Shown here in pieces: positions 12,560-21,427 of a DNA stretch of 64,000 bases (within the stretch, counting starts at the first letter, position 1; each line of letters begins with the position of its first letter). The notes below the pieces were generated by a model. That model made no database searches. It saw only the letters and a list, made by a program, of their open reading frames with translations, and was not told the origin of the DNA. This DNA comes from Nostoc spongiaeforme FACHB-130 (GTDB taxonomy: Bacteria > Cyanobacteriota > Cyanobacteriia > Cyanobacteriales > Nostocaceae): the NCBI RefSeq assembly GCF_014698475.1, contig NZ_JACJTB010000020.1, positions 1 to 64,000 on the forward strand, read 5' to 3'. The position numbers were made by a program, and so were the translations under genes.

Positions 12560-14560
12560 ATGGCATTTGTTGATGAAATCACACCTGAACAAAAATCTTT
12601 AATGCCAAGTTATCGAGAGAAATGGCATGAAATAGCATTTTTAACAAATAGAATTGACCAACAAAAATCTATATCAGCAATTCAAGATGTCTATGAACTA
12701 CTGAAACTGCCCACACCAGAAATTCAATTATTTGATAGTTTATATGCAGCAACAAAAATAGCAAAGCCTCTGTATAAGCGTCCTTACTTCACTGAAACTG
12801 GTTTAGTACATGCAAATGAATTAATAGGTAAGATACATGAGAAGTTGTATATTAACAATATAAATGCTATTGGTCATTGGGATGAATTTATTAATTCTCA
12901 ATTGCGTCCTGGGGCAACTTCAGAAATAGACAGACAGTTATCAGAGAGTTTTAAGAATTACCTTTTAGAAGATAAATCAAAATCTTTTTCATCCAGTTAT
13001 AACTATTATTGGTTTGTTCCTCTTCATTGGTATGCCCGTGAAGGTGGATTCTTCGATTTTCATTTCTCCGTAGTCAGTCATACGCTATTTGAACCTTATG
13101 ATGAATCTGCTTGGAAAGTATTTCAGAAGCTTGTTAAATCGTGTGGTTGGATTATTCCTTTTGAAAACATTTGTTTAGTTTGCGATCGCCCAACTCAGTT
13201 TTTGTTTGATTCCGAAAATTTACTTCATGCAGAAGGAGAAGCAGCAGTTAAATTTATTGATGGCAATGGGCTTTATTCTTACCACGGCGTTACGCTGCCA
13301 ATGGAATATGGAGAAAATCACCCTCATCAATGGCAACCAAAGTGGTTATTAGATGAAACTGATACAGAACTCAAAAAAATTCTAGTTCGAGCTATTACAA
13401 GCAAGGCTGAAAACTATAAAACTCGCTATTTTAAAGAAGCTTTAGAAATGGCTGCCAGCGTAGGAAGGCTGAATATTGTTCAACAGATATTAGCAATACA
13501 GAAATTTGATGGTCATTCTCTATCTAATGCTCTGGCTCATGGAGTCTGGAGTAGAGATATCAAAATTCTAGAAGTTTTAGTTCAGGCTGGTGCTTACTTA
13601 AATCTCCGCACAGAGTGGGGTACACCTTTGATTGCTGCTGCCAGAACAGGAGATGTGAGGATTGTCCGTTACTTGGTAGAAGCAGGCGCAGATCCAAATA
13701 TGTGGATAGACTACGATGGTTACATGAGTCCGCTTTCAGAAGCAAGCTATGAAGGACATCAGGAAGTTTGTGATTATCTTCTCCCTTTAATCACAGACCC
13801 AGAAGAAATTGAATATGCCGAACGAGAGTTACCAAAAGCAGTAATTCGCAAACAGCGACGAGAAAATCAATCCCTACAAAAATTCTTTGATGCTGTTAGT
13901 GAGAGTGATGCAACTACAGTGCGTGAGTTAGTTGCACAAGGTCTAGATATCAATTCTTTAAATGAAAATGGTATTACTGCTGTTCATTGTGCCGTTAATG
14001 GTGGTAATGTACGAATGATCAAGTTGCTGGCAGAATTAGGAGTAGATTTAAATCGCCTCGATGAAGATGGGCGAACGCCCTTGATGAGGGCAATTGGCAT
14101 CTATGCTTTTCAAGCTAGGGCATTGCGGACTTTAATTCGTGCTGGGGCTGACTTCAACTATAGAGATCAGGAAGGATACACAGCTTTGGACTATGCGGTT
14201 TTAGATTCCAGTATCCCAAGAGTTTTTGAAAAAATCCTGCTCTCTGCTGGCGCTCAACATGGTTGTTGGAAAGGAACAGAAATTCATCTTGCAGCCTCAA
14301 GCGGTAATGTCAGGTTAATTAATATTTTGGTATCTTCTGGGATAGATGTTAACCTGTTCTCTGAAACAGATGGTTTAACTCCACTCATGAAAGCTGTTAT
14401 ACATTCCAGAGCTTGGGCAATGCGAACTTTAATCCGTGCTGGTGCAAATGTTAACAGCAGAACTGAGAATGGCGAAACAGCGTTATATTTTGCTGAACAT
14501 ACAGGTAAGAAACATCCAGTGATTAAAAAGATTTTGCTAAAAGTTGGTGCAACGTACTAA
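12560..14560 (+). CDS. Ankyrin-repeat protein with an N-terminal domain of unknown function
   Basis: 666 aa. The C-terminal half contains about 8 ankyrin repeats (G.TPL..A...G....V..L...GAD.N). Confidence 0.75.
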   Translation: MAFVDEITPEQKSLMPSYREKWHEIAFLTNRIDQQKSISAIQDVYELLKLPTPEIQLFDSLYAATKIAKPLYKRPYFTETGLVHANELIGKIHEKLYINNINAIGHWDEFINSQLRPGATSEIDRQLSESFKNYLLEDKSKSFSSSYNYYWFVPLHWYAREGGFFDFHFSVVSHTLFEPYDESAWKVFQKLVKSCGWIIPFENICLVCDRPTQFLFDSENLLHAEGEAAVKFIDGNGLYSYHGVTLPMEYGENHPHQWQPKWLLDETDTELKKILVRAITSKAENYKTRYFKEALEMAASVGRLNIVQQILAIQKFDGHSLSNALAHGVWSRDIKILEVLVQAGAYLNLRTEWGTPLIAAARTGDVRIVRYLVEAGADPNMWIDYDGYMSPLSEASYEGHQEVCDYLLPLITDPEEIEYAERELPKAVIRKQRRENQSLQKFFDAVSESDATTVRELVAQGLDINSLNENGITAVHCAVNGGNVRMIKLLAELGVDLNRLDEDGRTPLMRAIGIYAFQARALRTLIRAGADFNYRDQEGYTALDYAVLDSSIPRVFEKILLSAGAQHGCWKGTEIHLAASSGNVRLINILVSSGIDVNLFSETDGLTPLMKAVIHSRAWAMRTLIRAGANVNSRTENGETALYFAEHTGKKHPVIKKILLKVGATY

Positions 14561-14580: not shown

Positions 14581-15159
14581 ATGAATGCCTTAACCTTACA
14601 ATTACCTCCCCATCTCAAATTTACAGATGAAGAATTTGAACAGATTGTTGCTGTTAATAAAGAGTTGCGATTGGAATTAACTGTTGAAGGAGAATTAGTA
14701 ATCATGTCACCCACTGGGGGAGAAACAGGAAGTCGTAATTTTGATTTGTTAGGTCAACTATGGTTTTGGAATAGTCAAAATAATTTAGGAAAAGCATTTG
14801 ATTCTTCCACTGGTTTTAGACTTCCTAATGGTGCAACTCGTTCTCCTGATGCTGCTTGGGTGAGAATAGAAAGATGGAACTCTCTCACGCCAGAACAAAG
14901 AAAAAAATTCCTACCTTTGTGTCCTGATTTTGCGGTGGAATTAGTTTCAGAAACTGATGACGTGGCAGAAACTCAAGCCAAAATGGAGGAATATTTAGCT
15001 TCAGGTTTATTACTTGGTTGGTTAATTAATCCTAAAGACAAACAAGTAATAATTTATCGCCCTCATCAAGCACCTGAAGTTTTACAATCGCCTACAAGTT
15101 TATCTGGTGAAGATATTCTTCCTGGTTTCGTTTTAAACTTGCAGCAGATTTTTGCATAA
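14581..15159 (+). CDS. Uma2-family (DUF820) putative endonuclease
   Basis: 192 aa sharing the pattern EF...V....ELRLELT.EGEL.IMSPTGGE.G..N..L...L..W......G.AFDS..GF.LPNG..RSPDA.WV with the ORFs at 43418 and 44107. Confidence 0.8.
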   Translation: MNALTLQLPPHLKFTDEEFEQIVAVNKELRLELTVEGELVIMSPTGGETGSRNFDLLGQLWFWNSQNNLGKAFDSSTGFRLPNGATRSPDAAWVRIERWNSLTPEQRKKFLPLCPDFAVELVSETDDVAETQAKMEEYLASGLLLGWLINPKDKQVIIYRPHQAPEVLQSPTSLSGEDILPGFVLNLQQIFA

Positions 15160-15165
15160 GTAAAT

Positions 15166-16392
15166 CTACTCCCGATTCTTTTTCATAATTTGCCAACATT
15201 GTTGTGCGATCGCCCAATCTTCTTGAGTATGTATAACTAACACTCGCACTGTAGAATCAGGTGTGGCGATATCTTGATCAACAGGTCGATTTTGATTTTT
15301 TTCGGGGTCAATTTTCACGCCCAAAAATCCAAAGGCTTCGCAGACTGCTTGGCGAATACCTGACGAATTTTCCCCGATACCTGCGGTAAATAACAATACA
15401 TCCAATCCGCCCAGACTAGCCAGCATCGCCCCAATTCCAGACCGCAGGCGATGGACGTACATATCCCAAGCGAGTTGGGCGCGTTCATTCCCTTGGGCGA
15501 TCGCTTCGATCACTTGGGGTAAGTCGCTGGATATTCCCGAAATTCCCCGTAAACCGGAAGCTTTATTTAATACATAATCTAAACTTTCGGACGAGTAATT
15601 AGATTGGCGCATTAGGTAAATTAAAATCCCTGGGTCAATGGAACCGCAACGACTCCCCATCATTAAACCGTCTAAAGGTGTGAAACCCATTGTGGTATCA
15701 ATACTGCGACCATTTTTAATCGCTGCTAACGAACAACCATTACCCAAGTGACAACTAATAATTCGCAACGATGCTAAATCTCGACCGAGAATTTGCGCCG
15801 CCCGTTCAGAACAATATTGATGGCTGATACCATGAAATCCATAGCGGCGAATACCTTGTTCTACCCATTCATAAGGGCCGGGATAAATCGCCGCCGCATC
15901 CGGGAGGGTGGAATGAAACCCTGTATCAAATACTGCCACTTGGGTAACTTCGCCTAAACTTTTCTCGATGGCTTCGATGCCTTCTAATGCGGCGGGGTTG
16001 TGTGCTGGGGCGAGATTAGAGAGACGAGCGATCGCATCTTTTACCTCTTCAGTAATCACCACACTATGGCGGTAGTCTTGCCCACCATGAACTACACGAT
16101 GTCCCACCACATCAATTTCTGACACTTCATTGACTACTTTAGTCGCACCACGGCTGAGGGTATAAAGCATATAAGCTATATGTGCTTGACGAGAGTCACC
16201 ATAAATAGATTCATGCAAAGTTTCACCGGATGCTGTTTTCACCTCAATTTCTGCCGCACCTTGGTCTTGAGTCCAGTTGACTTTGCCTTCCCACAGGGGT
16301 TTGGGTGCTGATTGGGGTAAAGCATCATCAACTATTTCATACAGACAGCTTTTTTGACTGCTGGAACCAGCATTTAGTACTAGGATTTTCAT
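15166..16392 (-). CDS. ackA: Acetate kinase
   Basis: Translation from the internal Met (MKILVLNAGSSS...) gives a canonical ~409-aa acetate kinase. The longer ORF to 16518 is an in-frame upstream extension whose sequence is duplicated elsewhere (see findings). Confidence 0.9.
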   Translation of the reverse strand: MKILVLNAGSSSQKSCLYEIVDDALPQSAPKPLWEGKVNWTQDQGAAEIEVKTASGETLHESIYGDSRQAHIAYMLYTLSRGATKVVNEVSEIDVVGHRVVHGGQDYRHSVVITEEVKDAIARLSNLAPAHNPAALEGIEAIEKSLGEVTQVAVFDTGFHSTLPDAAAIYPGPYEWVEQGIRRYGFHGISHQYCSERAAQILGRDLASLRIISCHLGNGCSLAAIKNGRSIDTTMGFTPLDGLMMGSRCGSIDPGILIYLMRQSNYSSESLDYVLNKASGLRGISGISSDLPQVIEAIAQGNERAQLAWDMYVHRLRSGIGAMLASLGGLDVLLFTAGIGENSSGIRQAVCEAFGFLGVKIDPEKNQNRPVDQDIATPDSTVRVLVIHTQEDWAIAQQCWQIMKKNRE

Positions 16393-16589
16393 AAATTTGA
16401 CCCGTTCTTGACAACACTGGAAAATTTGTTTTGAAGGTGCTGTTAAAGGATGATCGTTAATATGCTCTGGTAAAGGAAATTGATTGCGTTGATTGCGATC
16501 GCCTTGAGGATTCTTCAACCTGCTAAAAGTGGTGGCGAACTAGAAAATTATGCCATTTTGAGCTATTGATAAACCAAATTGAGTCAAAC

Positions 16590-16665
16590 AATTTTGGATT
16601 TTAGATTTGCGATTTTAGATTCAATCCAAAATCCAAAATCCAAAATCTAAAATTCGGAGGGTCAA
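16590..16665. repeat. STRR-like heptanucleotide tandem repeats (CCAAAAT)n with an inverted ATTTTGG/ATTTTAG arm
   Basis: Read directly: ...attttggattttagatttgcgattttagattcaatccaaaatccaaaatccaaaatctaaaattc... Confidence 0.8.
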
Positions 16666-16777
16666 ATTTAGTCGCAAAAGCAAAGTTTTTTGAGAAATGC
16701 AATAGACTTTCATCTAATGTTAATCGAGATGTTTTTTGCTTTATTCTAAGCATCGTTTTACAAAAAAATAAATCTAT

Positions 16778-18355
16778 ATGCTTAGACGAGCGCCCTTATA
16801 TTTTTTTTTAGGAATATTAACGAGTTCTAGCTGTTTCATCTTCAGTGTATCAGCCCAAGTCCCATCTACATCTAATTCGCAGCAGTCCTCAACTCGGAGT
16901 GAAGCTCAAGCTGCTAGTTGGTTTGAAGCCCATCGCTCCCAGCCAGCAGCTTTACGAGCATTTGTACAGCGAATGCCCAAGGGAGGAGATATTCACAGTC
17001 ATCTAAGTGGGGCTGTGTACGCAGAACATTATCTGGAGTGGGGTGCAACCGATGGGTATTGTGTGAATCCACAAGCGGGGACTTTAGTTGAACCCAAGGC
17101 TTGTAATCAGGACAGTAGCTATTTTCCCGCTTCCGAATTGTTCAACCGAACATCTGTTTATGACTCCCTGATAAATCGTTGGTCTACTCGTAACCTGCAA
17201 TTTGCTGGAAAATCTGGACATGACCAATTTTTTGAGGCTTTTGCTGGATTTGGGACAATATCAGATTCTGCCACCCGTCGGGATGATATGGTCGCATCAG
17301 TAGCAAATCGGGCAGCTTCCCAGCATATTACCTATCTAGAGTTAATGCTGACTGTTCAGGGGAGTGAGGTTCGACAGTTAGGGCGGGACGTGGGTTGGAA
17401 TCAAGACTTCAAAGAGATGCACGAGCAATTGCTCAAACGGGGATTAACTCAGCTAGTGACACTCGGCAGTCAGCAATTAATACAGTTGGAGAGTGAAGTT
17501 GCGAAAACCCTTGGTTGCGGCACTCCAGCAGCACAGCCTGGATGTACAGTCACGGTACGCTATTTGCAGCAAACTACCAGAACAAAATCACCTGTGGAAG
17601 TATTTGCTCAGTTAGCTTATGCTTTTGCACTGGCTTCATCCTCCAAGCAGGTAGTTGGGATCAATCTCGTCGCCCCAGAGGATCACCCGATCGCACTGCG
17701 TGACTACACTCTGCAAATGCAGATGCTACAATTTCTCAAACGCCAATATCCCAATGTTAAAATTTCACTTCATGCTGGAGAGTTAACTTTGGGGTTAGTT
17801 CCAACTGAGCATTTACGTTTTCATATTCGGCAAGCTGTAGAAGTAGCACAGGCATCTCGCATTGGACATGGTGTAGATATTCTGTTTGAAGAGCGTCCTT
17901 TTGAGTTGATGAAGCAAATGCAGCAACGCGGCGTGTTGGTGGAAATTTGCCTGACTAGTAATGAAGTCATTTTGAATGTCCAGGGAAATCAACATCCTTT
18001 TATGGAGTATTGGAAAGCTGGAGTCCCAATGACTCTTGCTTCCGATGATGAAGGCATTTCCCGCATCGATTTGAGTCATGAATATATGTTAGCCGCAACA
18101 AGATATGGGCTGGCATATAAAGACCTCAAGCGACTGGCTCGCAATAGCTTAGAATATAGTTTCGCACCCGGAAATAGTCTCTGGAAGTCGCCTGAATTTA
18201 AGGCAATGGTTCCAGCTTGTGCCAGCGATAGTCCTGGTGATACCTCTGTTTCTTCAGGATGCAGTGCTTTTTTGCAAAAGAGCGATCGCGCAAGAATACA
18301 ATGGCAACTAGAGTCGGAATTTACTCGGTTTGAGTCTTTGCAAAACTGGCTTTGA
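16778..18355 (+). CDS. Adenosine/AMP deaminase-family metallohydrolase with an N-terminal signal peptide
   Basis: 525 aa with the motifs IHSHLSG, SLHAGE and TLASDDEG, which match the adenosine deaminase fold metal/catalytic motifs. The N-terminus is hydrophobic. Confidence 0.7.
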   Translation: MLRRAPLYFFLGILTSSSCFIFSVSAQVPSTSNSQQSSTRSEAQAASWFEAHRSQPAALRAFVQRMPKGGDIHSHLSGAVYAEHYLEWGATDGYCVNPQAGTLVEPKACNQDSSYFPASELFNRTSVYDSLINRWSTRNLQFAGKSGHDQFFEAFAGFGTISDSATRRDDMVASVANRAASQHITYLELMLTVQGSEVRQLGRDVGWNQDFKEMHEQLLKRGLTQLVTLGSQQLIQLESEVAKTLGCGTPAAQPGCTVTVRYLQQTTRTKSPVEVFAQLAYAFALASSSKQVVGINLVAPEDHPIALRDYTLQMQMLQFLKRQYPNVKISLHAGELTLGLVPTEHLRFHIRQAVEVAQASRIGHGVDILFEERPFELMKQMQQRGVLVEICLTSNEVILNVQGNQHPFMEYWKAGVPMTLASDDEGISRIDLSHEYMLAATRYGLAYKDLKRLARNSLEYSFAPGNSLWKSPEFKAMVPACASDSPGDTSVSSGCSAFLQKSDRARIQWQLESEFTRFESLQNWL

Positions 18356-18382
18356 TCATGGAATCTAAATTATAGTAGTCTG
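18356..18382. repeat. Left 27-bp direct repeat ATCATGGAATCTAAATTATAGTAGTCT bounding the ATPase/DUF4276 cassette (partner at 20268-20294, 24/27 identical)
   Basis: Read directly from the sequence. Confidence 0.85.
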
Positions 18383-18415
18383 GCTGTGAAATTGTCCTAA
18401 CATCTCTGACTACCG

Positions 18416-19093
18416 CTATATGTTTTCTAGATTTAGTAACCATTGGTGAAAATGCTGGCATTGTTGGCGGATTGTATCTAGTCCAATCTCAATAGCCAGC
18501 AACGAACCATGCAGTACTTTGTCGTATTCTTGACAACACTTGAGAATTCTTTTTGAGGGAGCGGTTAACGGATGATCGTTAATGTGTTCTGGTGAAATAA
18601 ATTGATTGCGATCGCCTTGTAAAATACTAACTACACTAGCATCAAACCACTCAGCAAATACTTGTGGCTGGCTGTACAGCAGTGCCTCAAATTCATGAAC
18701 TAACAAATTAGGGATGAAATTTGTGTGACCGATATCCTGACCCATCTTTTGTTCTAAATATTCAACTTTTTGGAATGGGTCACTAGTATTTGGCAAAGAA
18801 TCCCTTCCGGGAAAATCATTCGGTAAGCGGTACAAATCAAACATTGTGGTCACGAAAGCTGTTTTATCTTCACGGCACTTACGGTCTAATTGTGGCTTAA
18901 TTTTGGCGTAACTTACCACACCTCCTTTGCCTATAGAACTTGTTCTGACCAAAATCGGGTTCAGGAAGATGTCTTTTTCTTGAAAATACTCGTAGAGTAC
19001 TTCTTTCACGAACGTTTCCTCAGTTTGACCTTCAACGAAAACATGGACTCGAATCATCGTGAAGGTCTCCCACCCAGGAGGTTCTTCTTCCAC
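18416..19093 (-). CDS. DUF4276-like small protein with a Toprim-like N-terminal motif (VHVFVEGQTEE); putative nuclease partner of the adjacent ATPase
   Basis: 225 aa. The N-terminal V.VFVEGQTEE motif resembles the conserved-glutamate Toprim/OLD-type motif. It overlaps the upstream ATPase gene by 40 bp. The C-terminal ~35 aa are encoded by a segment duplicated upstream of ackA. Confidence 0.6.
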   Translation of the reverse strand: MEEEPPGWETFTMIRVHVFVEGQTEETFVKEVLYEYFQEKDIFLNPILVRTSSIGKGGVVSYAKIKPQLDRKCREDKTAFVTTMFDLYRLPNDFPGRDSLPNTSDPFQKVEYLEQKMGQDIGHTNFIPNLLVHEFEALLYSQPQVFAEWFDASVVSILQGDRNQFISPEHINDHPLTAPSKRILKCCQEYDKVLHGSLLAIEIGLDTIRQQCQHFHQWLLNLENI

Positions 19094-20160
19094 AATTCGC
19101 CTAAACTATATTCTTCTAGCCATTCCTCTAACTCCTCCTCATCCAACCTGCGTAGTAATGATTTTCCCTGCAAGCGGTCAACAACAATTACATCTGCAAC
19201 ATCAAATTCGTTGAGTAATTCCACAGACTGGGTAGAAACAATCACTTGCTTAGGGACAGTTTTTATTAAGGATGCCAAAATCTTGATGGCATAAGGATGG
19301 AGACCTAATTCCGGCTCATCAACTAAAATTGTTTCTGGTTGAAGTTCTTCCGGCTGCAAAAAAACCGTTGCTAAACAGATAAAACGCAACGTTCCATCAG
19401 AAAGGAAATGTGCTTTGAAGGGAATATCCTGTCCTTTCTCGAACCATTCCAGTTCAATAGATTCCTCGTTTTGTGGCGAAGGACGCAGGAGAAAGTCACC
19501 AAAGAACGGCGCAACAAGCCTGATGGTTTTAACGATTTTCTGATAAGATTTCTGATAATTCTCACGCAACAGATACAAAAAAGCTGCCAGATTACGCGCA
19601 TCAGGACGCAAGTAAACATTGTCATTGATACCATGCGGCTGTTTTACATAAGCACTATCACTGGTGTCATGAAAATGATAAACTCGCCACTGCCGCATCG
19701 TAGGTAAAACGTACTTATCAATTTGAGTCCCTGTACCTCTAGAGGCCTTTGTCTCGAAATGACCTTTACCTATTTCACGCTTACCACTCCTGTTCCACCA
19801 GGAAGACTCAGCAGCGAACATTAGGCGATTATCCTGAGTTGGTTCTAAAGTAGCGAAGTAGCCGTTATTGCCAAAATATAATTGAAATTCTAGTTGTTCT
19901 GTAGTTTTACGACCAAAGTACAATAAAGCATCAGGGCCACCTTGACGGCTAACAAAAACCTGTAGGTTCTGTTCTAGCAGCTGCTGAACCATACGGAAGA
20001 AGCCGATAAAATTGGATTTTCCCGCCCCATTAGCCCCAATTAAAATATTCACCCTGGAGAGTTCAAGGTCACACTCAGCGATAGACTTGAAGCCTTTCAA
20101 AACTATTCTCGACAGTTGTTTGTAACTGCGCGCCTCTGTCATGAACAGTCTCCCAGTCAA
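19054..20160 (-). CDS. ABC-type (SMC/OLD-like, AAA_21/AAA_15-class) ATPase
   Basis: 368 aa with Walker A GANGAGKSN, an ABC signature-like LSDGTLRF, Walker B ILVDEPELGLHP, and a possible D-loop. Confidence 0.8.
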   Translation of the reverse strand: MTGRLFMTEARSYKQLSRIVLKGFKSIAECDLELSRVNILIGANGAGKSNFIGFFRMVQQLLEQNLQVFVSRQGGPDALLYFGRKTTEQLEFQLYFGNNGYFATLEPTQDNRLMFAAESSWWNRSGKREIGKGHFETKASRGTGTQIDKYVLPTMRQWRVYHFHDTSDSAYVKQPHGINDNVYLRPDARNLAAFLYLLRENYQKSYQKIVKTIRLVAPFFGDFLLRPSPQNEESIELEWFEKGQDIPFKAHFLSDGTLRFICLATVFLQPEELQPETILVDEPELGLHPYAIKILASLIKTVPKQVIVSTQSVELLNEFDVADVIVVDRLQGKSLLRRLDEEELEEWLEEYSLGELWKKNLLGGRPSR

Positions 20161-20210
20161 CAGGCTTTTTCTACATAGGTTTCATTTTATCGAGTTTCTG
20201 CAAAAATGCT

Positions 20211-20268
20211 TTAATCCCACATTCCGCCTTCTCCTTTGTTAATTGGAGATCCAGAATGTGGGATTTAA
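20211..20268. repeat. Stem-loop (14-bp arms TTAATCCCACATTC / GAATGTGGGATTAA, about 29-nt loop) abutting the right 27-bp direct repeat
   Basis: Read directly. It lies between the convergent ATPase and tal genes. Confidence 0.7.
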
Positions 20269-20294
20269 TCATGGAATCTAAATCCTAGTAGTTT
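20268..20294. repeat. Right 27-bp direct repeat ATCATGGAATCTAAATCCTAGTAGTTT
   Basis: Read directly. Confidence 0.85.
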
Positions 20295-20422
20295 ACCAAC
20301 CCAATATTGCTGCTATGTAGACCTAGTAAGGGTGCAGGGGGAATTGAGGAAATCTTCTCCCCCCTTGCTCCCTGCTCCCTGCCCCGAAGCCTGCCATCAC
20401 GCAAAGTTCTCTTGGTAGACTA

Positions 20423-21427
20423 CTAGTGGCTGGCGACTACTTCTAAACTAGAGAGTCTGTCTGCCAATAGTTTTTCTAGGTCTTCTAAGGCTTTGGTAAA
20501 TCCTTTGATACCTTCGTCTAATTTGTCGTAAGCCATTTGGTCTTCGGCGTGCATTTTGTCGAAGGTGGCTTTGTCGATGGAGATTTTGGCAATATCCAAA
20601 GAAGCGACTTTAGAAGGATCAAGTTTGCGGGGTAGTTCGCCGATGGTGGCTTGCAATTCACCCAACAAAGAGGGAGAGATGGTGAGTAAATCACAACCAG
20701 CTAATTCAGTGATTTCACCAACGTTGCGGAAGCTTGCGCCCATAACTTCGGTTTTGTGGCCGAACTTTTTATAGTAGTTATAGATGGTGGTAACAGATAC
20801 TACGCCTGGATCTTCAGCAGATGGGTAGCTGTCGCGTCCAGTTGATTTTTTATACCAGTCCAGAATCCGACCGACGAAGGGAGAAATGAGGGTAACACCT
20901 GCTTCAGCACAAGCGATCGCTTGATGTAAACCAAACAATAAAGTTAAGTTACAGTGAATACCTTCTTTTTCGAGAATTTCGGCGGCGCGAATACCTTCCC
21001 AGGTACTAGCAATTTTAATCAAAATTCTTTCGGGGCCGATGCCAGCAGCTTTATACTGAGCAATGATTTCTCGACCTTTAGCGACTGTCGCTTCTGTGTC
21101 GTAAGATAAACGGGCATCAACTTCTGTAGAAACCCGACCAGGAATAATTTGCAGAATCTTCAAACCAAAGGATACAGCCAAGCGATCAAAGGCTAAAGAA
21201 ACAATTTGGGCTTGGCTTGCACCTGCACCAGCATCTTTTTTAGCTTGCAATAAAGTCTGGTCAACAATATCCTGATACTCTGGCATTTGTGCGGCAGCAG
21301 TAATCAAGGAAGGGTTGGTGGTCGCGTCTCTCGGTGTAAATTTTTCAATGGCTTTAATATCGCCAGTATCAGCAACTACTACTGTAACTTCGCGCAACTG
21401 TTCTAGTAAATTTTTAGACATAATCAA
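20423..21427 (-). CDS. tal: Transaldolase
   Basis: 334 aa with the typical bacterial transaldolase N-terminus ([18 protein letters not shown]...) and overall length. Confidence 0.9.

Follow-up and report, generated by a model that had tools for sequence, protein, structure and literature searches.

INTRODUCTION

HEC-01 ("Hma-embedded candidate" 01) is a pair made up of an ABC ATPase plus a TOPRIM protein described by Payne et al. (bioRxiv 10.1101/2024.01.29.577857). In this study, we analyzed a 64,000-nucleotide (nt) stretch of DNA from Nostoc spongiaeforme FACHB-130 (hereafter the window, whose coordinates are used throughout) that carries two adjacent genes, one encoding an ABC ATPase and one encoding a DUF4276 protein. 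We found this cassette to be a standalone copy of the two-gene candidate defense system HEC-01, which is already catalogued by PADLOC. The preliminary description of the stretch had recognized a defense-type pair and was not certain that it had been characterized; its assignment to a defense-type family stands, but its novelty does not.

One HEC-01 representative from cold-seep metagenomes protected Escherichia coli B against at least one of the phages T4, T5, and T7 (PMC12881386), and other authors continue to regard HEC-01 as unvalidated (PMC12853721). A study that places DUF4276 in the Toprim superfamily also connects it with Mad4 of MADS and with variants of Menshen (PMC12065111), and the metal site is reported to be conserved in DUF4276/HEC-01B (PMC12065111; Payne et al., bioRxiv 10.1101/2024.01.29.577857). 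In the AAA_15/21 tree of the PARIS study (PMC11464382), the ATPases associated with DUF4276 branch separately.

The window pair resembles HEC-01 in its end-to-end matches to the HEC-01A and HEC-01B profiles and in its arrangement, an ABC ATPase gene followed by an adjacent, co-oriented gene for a separate TOPRIM-like protein. It differs in context, as it stands alone between metabolic genes of a cyanobacterial host, whereas the pairs of Payne et al. are embedded in the helicase-methylase-ATPase system Hma. Other systems are further away. The OLD proteins (P2 Old and the Burkholderia pseudomallei and Thermus OLD; PDB 6nk8 and 6p74) share the ABC head motifs and the Toprim fold, but OLD of classes 1 and 2 is a single fused ATPase-Toprim polypeptide, whereas the window pair consists of two open reading frames (ORFs) with a much smaller ATPase (362 aa) at only 13 to 15% identity. 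PARIS combines the ABC ATPase AriA with AriB, a DUF4435 Toprim protein (PMC11464382), whereas the small protein in the window belongs to DUF4276, not DUF4435, and matched only the DUF4276 and HEC-01B profiles, with no AriB match at an E value of ≤0.01. MADS, the methylation-associated defense system, contains a related ATPase, Mad3 (PADLOC mad3, 9e-27; NCBIfam MAD3, 5e-29), and a DUF4276 homologue, Mad4 (PMC12065111). However, the window ATPase scored 101.6 bits against an equivalog cutoff of 420 for MAD3, and no methyltransferase or other mad gene was found near the cassette, the neighbors of which are tal and ada. Gabija (GajA/GajB) and Septu (PtuA/PtuB) are likewise ABC ATPase-driven nuclease defenses, and GajA and PtuA are structural neighbors of the proteins described here, but the window has no adjacent UvrD-like GajB or HNH PtuB, and GajA is a fused protein.

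RESULTS

The cassette encodes both components of HEC-01

The ATPase and DUF4276 ORFs are co-oriented on the minus strand, between ada on the plus strand and tal on the minus strand, and the cassette comprises the following features:

19054 to 20142, minus strand: HEC-01A, a compact ABC ATPase with an SMC/Rad50/OLD-like head (362 aa, ATG start, ribosome-binding site GGGAGA)
18416 to 19057, minus strand: HEC-01B, a DUF4276 Toprim-like putative nuclease (213 aa, ATGA overlap with the ATPase stop codon)
20143 to 20200, minus strand: the conserved leader or promoter-proximal region of the cassette, shared across the window, Nostoc cycadae, Fortiea, and Nostoc TH1S01

The NCBI proteins of N. spongiaeforme FACHB-130 that are 100% identical to the two products are 362 aa (ATPase) and 213 aa (DUF4276) long. 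Because these annotated proteins start at ATG 20142 and ATG 19057, the genes likely overlap by only 4 bp (ATGA at 19054 to 19057), and the starts are called in the same way, with the same 4-bp overlap, in the N. cycadae annotation. The 40-bp overlap proposed earlier is an artifact of the longest ORFs, which begin at GTG 19093 and TTG 20160. Both window ORFs are intact and of full length, retain all family-invariant residues, and preserve the start, the ribosome-binding site, and the ATGA coupling. A scan for consensus promoters and terminators returned counts no higher than those of shuffled sequences, with no convincing cassette promoter.

The ATPase matched the PADLOC profile HEC-01A (PDLC04175) with an E value of 4.2e-155, residues 14 to 366 of the 368-aa longest ORF aligning with positions 4 to 362 of the 363-position profile. 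It also matched Pfam AAA_21 (2.2e-25) and pieces of SMC_N, AAA_15, and DUF2813, and its profile matches include GajA and OLD. Consistent with the proposal that it is an ABC ATPase with all three diagnostic motifs, Walker A (G36-x-N-G-x-G-K42-S43), the signature (S248-D-G250), and Walker B (D275-E276) were invariant in an alignment of 32 homologues. An AlphaFold2 model (mean predicted local distance difference test score, 86.5) had as its top Foldseek matches the SMC head 4i99, Rad50, the retron/Septu PtuA, and Thermus OLD, with E values of 1e-11 to 1e-14 for the heads, and the model thus predicts an ABC head of the SMC/Rad50 type. One segment of the protein (residues ~105 to 155, window positions 19720 to 20007), lying between Walker A and the Q-loop region, is hypervariable, with 74 to 81% nucleotide identity to N. 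cycadae versus 89 to 97% around it, and contains indels. It appears to be the fast-evolving part of the ATPase, as would be expected of a sensing or partner-binding surface, and may be a specificity or sensor insert.

The small protein matched Pfam DUF4276 (1.3e-59) and the PADLOC profile HEC-01B (PDLC04188; 3.5e-87), residues 11 to 224 aligning with positions 10 to 225 of 230. The invariant residues among DUF4276 homologues were E9-G-Q-T-E13, D74, E102, E122, E124, and E157; from the alignment, E9, E13, D74, E122, and E124 are candidates for an OLD-type catalytic glutamate and a DxD-type acidic site. A search of PDB chain sequences with the DUF4276 profile gave only noise (E ≥ 0.14). In contrast to what a Toprim-negative prediction would have looked like, a fold comparison found the Toprim fold to be present, in support of the earlier suggestion that the protein is Toprim-like, and the closest structural relatives of both proteins were defense nucleases and ATPases, namely OLD, GajA, AriB, and PtuA. 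We therefore describe HEC-01B as a DUF4276 protein with a predicted Toprim fold of the OLD type and a putative nuclease.

The direct repeats appear to derive from a hairpin element

The pair had been described as exactly bracketed by 27-bp direct repeats and accompanied by a hairpin, which was taken to indicate site-specific insertion. Both features are real. Positions 18348 to 18379 and 20261 to 20292 form a direct repeat of 32 nt at 88% identity, the core of which (ATCATGGAATCTAAATnnTAGTAGT) occurs exactly twice in the 64 kb, where shuffled sequences led us to expect no occurrence. Beside the right copy, an inverted repeat with 19-nt arms (20206 to 20224 and 20254 to 20272; 89%) gives a stable predicted RNA fold of −34.6 kcal/mol (z = −4.8). 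These features belong to one element, which we call H:

20201 to 20293, minus strand: element H (~93 nt), with the core stem AAATCCCACATTC / GAATGTGGGATTT and a nested inner stem; 20268 to 20292 is its 5′ flank and constitutes the right repeat
18355 to 18379, minus strand: the remnant of a second copy of H (H positions 19 to 43), which abuts the ada stop codon and constitutes the left repeat

The bracketing of an insertion by the repeats is not exact. The left repeat begins at the ada stop codon (18353 to 18355), with tal on the far side of the cassette; its initial 9 nt, GGCTTTGAT, are the last of the ada coding sequence, and the repeat as a whole is a fragment of the ~93-nt element. Because GGCTTTGAT is conserved in the ada gene at a different, unrelated locus, its match to GGATTTAAT in H is microhomology.

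In related genomes, H is conserved directly downstream of tal, at 97% identity in N. cycadae and 85% in Fortiea, where it begins right after the tal stop codon. Fortiea LEGE XX443 has this upstream hairpin but no downstream copy of the repeat. Nostoc TH1S01 has neither H nor the repeat; it shares only the last ~60 nt before the ATPase ATG, which are also kept in the window, N. cycadae, and Fortiea (86% identity in TH1S01, at L001 1136 to 1172, where L numbers denote loci that we fetched), and its upstream context beyond this leader is unrelated. Thus, cassettes without flanking repeats occur at this very locus in two related strains. No empty tal-ackA site that we examined held the single copy of the repeat that had been predicted, nor any similarity to H, a comparison of limited power since the empty sites come from more distant relatives (ackA 72 to 89% identical). 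Cassettes in Cylindrospermum and Dolichospermum had no flanking repeats and no hairpin, and between the repeats of the window there are only the ATPase and DUF4276 genes, with no recombinase or integrase.

The two genomes that retain traces of a second H copy retain different parts of it. Downstream of DUF4276, the window keeps H positions 19 to 43 (23 of 25 identical), and the homologous place in N. cycadae keeps the nonoverlapping positions 84 to 110 (27 of 27), with weaker similarity up to ~120. The simplest reading of these sequences is that the common ancestor of the two had a much fuller second copy of H, of which each lineage deleted a different part.

Neither in the rest of the window nor in the fetched loci did we find another copy of H. 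A 19-mer of H had two matches in a metagenome collection, neither beside HEC-01 genes and neither extending past ~27 nt, which we treated as chance, and an Rfam scan of 16300 to 20500 gave no match for H. The element is not a canonical intrinsic terminator, as its T-run is separated from the stem. We rejected H as a duplicated target of the original insertion, since Fortiea has no second copy, and as a miniature inverted-repeat transposable element (MITE), since it is not dispersed in the sequences searched. Other hairpins occur nearby: the tal-cassette spacer of the window contains a G-rich inverted repeat (GGGGCAGGGAGCAGGGAG…CTCCCCC type) at 20330 to 20385, and the corresponding N. cycadae spacers contain different hairpin elements (L002 9777 to 9823 and 11769 to 11829). 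These look like species-specific small intergenic insertions.

The cassette is an old insertion in the tal-ackA spacer

To place the cassette in its genomic context, we fetched 80 loci around ackA homologues and mapped the window genes onto them by tblastn. The flanking genes in the window are:

20423 to 21427, minus strand: tal (transaldolase), the upstream flank, placed by tblastn synteny
15166 to 16392, minus strand: ackA (acetate kinase), the downstream flank, with its true start at MKILVLNAGSS

Nostocales commonly have the gene order xfp-gap-pyk-tal-ackA, and in more than 15 of their loci tal is followed after 166 to 2,950 nt by ackA with no cassette between them; the cassette-free genera and species include Komarekiella, Anabaena minutissima, Nodularia, Trichormus, Spirirestis, Chlorogloeopsis, Dolichospermum, and Calothrix. 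The only genomes with the cassette at tal-ackA were those whose ackA is most similar to that of the window, i.e., N. cycadae (93%), Nostoc TH1S01 (93%), and Fortiea LEGE XX443 (90%). Its absence from the tal-ackA spacer of most Nostocales bears out the view that it was inserted into this central-carbon cluster.

The simplest form of the insertion is seen in Fortiea, where similarity to empty sites extends up to the tal stop codon (L005 7553) and sets in again at ~9532, with the 3′ end of a small ORF. The insert (L005 7554 to ~9531, ~2 kb) consists of the hairpin element, the ATPase gene, the DUF4276 gene, and ~100 nt. The small ORF (~105 to 125 aa; L005 9532 to 9870, minus strand) lies on the opposite strand in the tal-ackA gap of most Nostocales, among them L006, L007, L008, L013, L014, L016, L017, and L018, and encodes a signal peptide and an Arg/His/Tyr-rich tail. 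It had no Pfam match, and the window, N. cycadae, and TH1S01 lack it.

A recent insertion does not agree with the divergence of the genes. Between the window and Fortiea, synonymous divergence (dS) was 0.42 and 0.67 for the two cassette genes and 0.49 to 0.68 for tal, pyk, and ackA, and the cassette is shared by N. cycadae, Fortiea, and TH1S01. Because the cassette dS matches that of tal, pyk, and ackA, the insertion is old, and it appears to have occurred in the ancestor of a small Nostoc/Fortiea clade. The ratio of nonsynonymous to synonymous divergence (dN/dS) was 0.10 to 0.21 for both cassette genes, indicating that both have been under purifying selection.

A DUF4276 relic and a later ada gene point to a mosaic history

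Between the cassette and ackA, the window contains two features that bear on the history of the locus:

16396 to 16506, minus strand: the relic of a second DUF4276 gene (~codons 150 to 177 plus flanks), in frame with the longest ackA ORF
16755 to 18356, plus strand: the adenosine deaminase (ada) ORF, with the coding sequence at 16778 to 18355 (Pfam A_deaminase, 3.3e-29)

The relic forms direct repeats with 18518 to 18619 (D1, 93 nt at 82%; D5, 18 nt at 100%), and the translation of the longest ackA ORF reads …NQFPLPEHINDHPLTAPSKQIFQCCQE… through it. The region from 16396 to 16518 gives this longest ORF a spurious 42-aa N-terminal extension. A relic in N. cycadae (L002 13687 to 13803) shares with that of the window a 9-nt internal duplication and an identical junction with the ackA leader. 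The N. cycadae relic was 89 to 93% identical to intact DUF4276 genes and the window relic 84 to 87%, differences compatible with derivation of the relic from the same event as the intact copy; alternatively, it may come from an older, separate cassette generation that was replaced by a newer one. In TH1S01, 19 nt separate the end of a full-length but frameshifted DUF4276 gene from ackA, and the GGGTCAAAgTT-ATG leader is the same; a cassette that adjoins ackA has thus been observed. Together, the DUF4276 relic and the H remnant suggest that the lineage shared by the window and N. cycadae once had a second, probably tandem, H-ATPase-DUF4276 copy.

The cassette had been thought to have landed between ada and tal, but ada is the later arrival at the locus. 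It was absent from the tal-ackA locus in Fortiea, TH1S01, and all empty sites mapped, and its neighbors in Nostoc sp. DSM 114160 are acs and a rhodanese gene. That locus (L095 5978 to 7576) is homologous to the window only over 16755 to 18356, a segment that starts 23 nt ahead of the ATG and includes a single base after the stop codon; ada thus seems to have moved with little more than its ORF. Its product has a signal-peptide-like N terminus. Between the ada start and the relic, heptamer repeats (AATCCAAAATCCAAAAT and its complement) form a hairpin with 24-nt arms (16591 to 16653); it was absent from the homologous N. cycadae spacer, and Rfam returned only subthreshold matches to microRNA models for it (16590 to 16675).

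Divergence along the locus was uneven. From the 3′ end of the ATPase gene through DUF4276 and ada (16540 to 19270), the window and N. cycadae were 95 to 97% identical, with a dS of 0.10 to 0.16, versus 0.29 to 0.46 for tal, pyk, ackA, and the whole ATPase gene. TH1S01 was nearer to the window in ackA and the ATPase gene (dS, 0.28 to 0.30), yet it has neither ada nor the relic. This pattern points to an exchange of the DUF4276-ada-relic block between lineages through homologous recombination.

The pair is widespread and linked in heterocystous cyanobacteria

The ATPase family was found to be widespread in heterocystous cyanobacteria, with 69 to 92% identity among the best 120 matches, and homologues of the DUF4276 partner showed the same distribution pattern. 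A HEC-01A protein from an Alteromonadaceae metagenome-assembled genome was 71% identical to the Nostoc ATPase over 98% of its length, which implies strong constraint and cross-phylum transfer of the HEC-01A family. In the other genomes that we looked up, the linkage of the two genes holds: a DUF4276 gene or its remnant, intact or degraded, directly follows the ATPase gene, except in Brasilonema, where none was called.

Nostoc TH1S01: DUF4276 frameshifted (L001 2240 to 2931); a Ca-binding-repeat ORF upstream and ackA 19 nt downstream
N. cycadae: DUF4276 intact; same locus as in the window
Nostoc TCL26-01: DUF4276 truncated to 90 aa (L085 9086 to 9358); neighbors, a GTPase-domain gene and a ParA-like gene
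Brasilonema: DUF4276 not called (L087 9101 to 9615); neighbors, genes for a TPS-domain protein and an ABC permease
Cylindrospermum stagnale: DUF4276 intact; neighbors, chorismate synthase and Uma2 genes
Dolichospermum: DUF4276 intact; neighbors, Dus and HicB-like genes and an enolase-superfamily gene

The DUF4276 gene is damaged in TH1S01 and TCL26-01 and uncalled in Brasilonema, and the ATPase gene is intact in all three, so that the nuclease gene seems to be lost first. No recombinase or transposase gene was found beside the pair in the genomes looked up, apart from an unrelated IS605 OrfB gene ~2.3 kb away in Dolichospermum.

Two further observations concern the neighborhood of the cassette. 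A gene of the Uma2 family (putative restriction endonuclease-like) lies just past ackA in the window (14581 to 15159), and Uma2 genes occur within a few kilobases of HEC-01 in three other Nostocales loci (L085 4274 to 4951, L087 11714 to 12337, and L088 9842 to 10450). Uma2 genes are very abundant in cyanobacteria, and this proximity may be a coincidence. The window also encodes a 666-aa protein (12560 to 14560) with a DUF6745 N-terminal region and many ankyrin repeats, which are unusual for a bacterium; it showed weak NCBIfam similarity, below the cutoffs, to Legionella Ank effectors.

DISCUSSION

On balance, we favor the reading that the locus is an old HEC-01 cassette encoding a putative defense nuclease and that its repeats are debris of a partial second copy rather than attachment sites. 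We hold the defense-nuclease part of this reading to be somewhat probable and no more, because the published experimental record of HEC-01 is mixed. By analogy with OLD, Gabija, and PARIS, the ATPase would dimerize around ATP and hold or sense its Toprim partner; a phage-derived cue would change the state of the ATPase, and the metal-dependent Toprim nuclease would then be licensed to cut nucleic acid, either DNA or, as in PARIS, tRNA, which would stop the infection. As for the locus, a cassette of ~2 kb with its hairpin leader would have entered the spacer between tal and the small converging ORF upstream of ackA in the ancestor of the clade and would have been kept under purifying selection since then. 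The lineage that gave rise to the window and N. cycadae would have carried a second hairpin-ATPase-DUF4276 copy, probably in tandem, the stretch of which between H position ~120 and DUF4276 codon ~147 would have given way to an inversely oriented, ORF-only ada. The leftovers would be an H stub beside the ada stop codon and a DUF4276 stub beside ackA, and the "27-bp direct repeats" would be nothing other than this H stub and the intact H element.

Several points weigh against this reading. On the protein side, the textbook DxD of Toprim proteins is not obvious in HEC-01B, as only D74 is invariant in TTMFDLY, and the H-loop position of the ATPase is occupied by an invariant glutamine, Gln305 (STQS, residues 303 to 306, window positions 19228 to 19239), in all 32 aligned HEC-01A homologues; with Gln in place of the canonical His, the hydrolysis kinetics may be unusual. 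The cassette lies in no recognizable defense island, its neighbors being metabolic genes, and a search of IMG/VR viral contigs with the ATPase found no relative. In the E. coli assays of Payne et al. (bioRxiv 10.1101/2024.01.29.577857), the HEC-01 representative did not protect against the phages tried; the published evidence for HEC-01 activity comes only from E. coli and is mixed. With regard to the history, the tandem copy is deduced from two short remnants, the full intermediate was found in no genome, and the mosaic dS values suggest later recombination that blurs the order of events.

A different role for the pair is unlikely, though of the alternatives it has the most in its favor. The two genes could constitute a selfish addiction or toxin-antitoxin-like module, or a domesticated nucleic-acid maintenance factor, the loss of which is costly, instead of acting primarily against phages. 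A small two-gene unit that in several genera is flanked by housekeeping genes and accompanied by no mobile-element genes, shows unusual conservation (69 to 92% identity in the best 120 matches, including 71% in Alteromonadaceae), and was apparently retained vertically in the clade with a dN/dS of 0.1 to 0.2 would fit such a role, as would the one negative phage test of HEC-01 and the Pfam label of AAA_21 ("putative AbiEii toxin, Type IV TA system," i.e., toxin-antitoxin system). However, the family was discovered embedded in Hma defense systems, one representative did protect against phage, and the nearest structural relatives are OLD, GajA, AriB, and PtuA; strict addiction is further at odds with the frameshifted DUF4276 gene of TH1S01 and the truncated one of TCL26-01, in both of which the ATPase gene is intact. 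That the cassette is a decaying, nonfunctional remnant is very improbable. Damaged copies do exist in TH1S01 (frameshift), TCL26-01 (90-aa DUF4276), and possibly Brasilonema (none called), and the window itself holds a relic copy, but the two window ORFs are intact and full length with the family-invariant residues, have a dN/dS of 0.10 to 0.21, and preserve the start, the ribosome-binding site, and the ATGA coupling.

Two other explanations concern the repeats, and we regard both as improbable. In a recent site-specific integration, the 27-bp repeats would be duplicated attachment or target sites and the hairpin would be a part of the recombination site; the repeats do exist and occur nowhere else in the window, most Nostocales lack the cassette in the tal-ackA spacer, and the same pair occupies different intergenic sites in other genera. 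Against these observations stand the lack of a recombinase, integrase, or transposase gene in or beside the cassette, the same insertion site in Fortiea without a downstream repeat and the TH1S01 cassette without hairpin or repeat, the empty sites without the repeat and the cassettes elsewhere without flanking repeats, and the age of the insertion, with a dS of 0.4 to 0.7 to the Fortiea orthologues. The left repeat is, moreover, partly the coding end of ada, and the window and N. cycadae keep nonoverlapping parts of H, so that the 27-mer would be an accident of deletion. Alternatively, the two copies could be independent insertions of a small, mobile, MITE-like hairpin element on either side of the cassette, unrelated to any duplication, for which the species-specific hairpins in nearby Nostoc intergenic regions (20330 to 20385, different in N. 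cycadae, and the heptamer hairpin at 16591 to 16653) offer a precedent; yet neither the window nor the fetched loci contain a further copy of H, its 19-mer has only two unrelated metagenome matches, both copies of H have the same orientation, and the DUF4276 relic fits a second cassette copy and not a MITE. Finally, it is conceivable, although we give it very little weight, that the HEC-01 pair is self-propagating, its Toprim protein and ATPase making or processing a DNA break so that the ~2-kb unit copies itself into spacers by homing-like or tandem reinsertion. If this were true, its footprints would be the partial second copy, the presence of the same pair in unrelated Nostocales spacers without a recombinase, and the conservation across phyla.

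Returning to the favored reading of an old HEC-01 cassette with second-copy debris, its main value is corrective: the locus can be filed under HEC-01, and its repeats should not be taken as evidence for a new integration mechanism. At the protein level, the earlier interpretation was correct but not new, and the history of the locus is instructive but ordinary. It provides a dated natural series of a defense-type cassette in a conserved central-carbon cluster, from the empty site through the simple insertion in Fortiea and the cassette abutting ackA with a decaying nuclease gene in TH1S01 to the cassette with ada-overwritten remains of a second copy in the window and N. cycadae. The series shows how cassettes of this kind are retained, duplicate, erode, and are exchanged through homologous recombination in the absence of mobile-element genes. 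Heterocystous cyanobacteria commonly carry HEC-01, which is well conserved in them, and this member, with its clear series of orthologues, is a reasonable candidate for a test in its native host.

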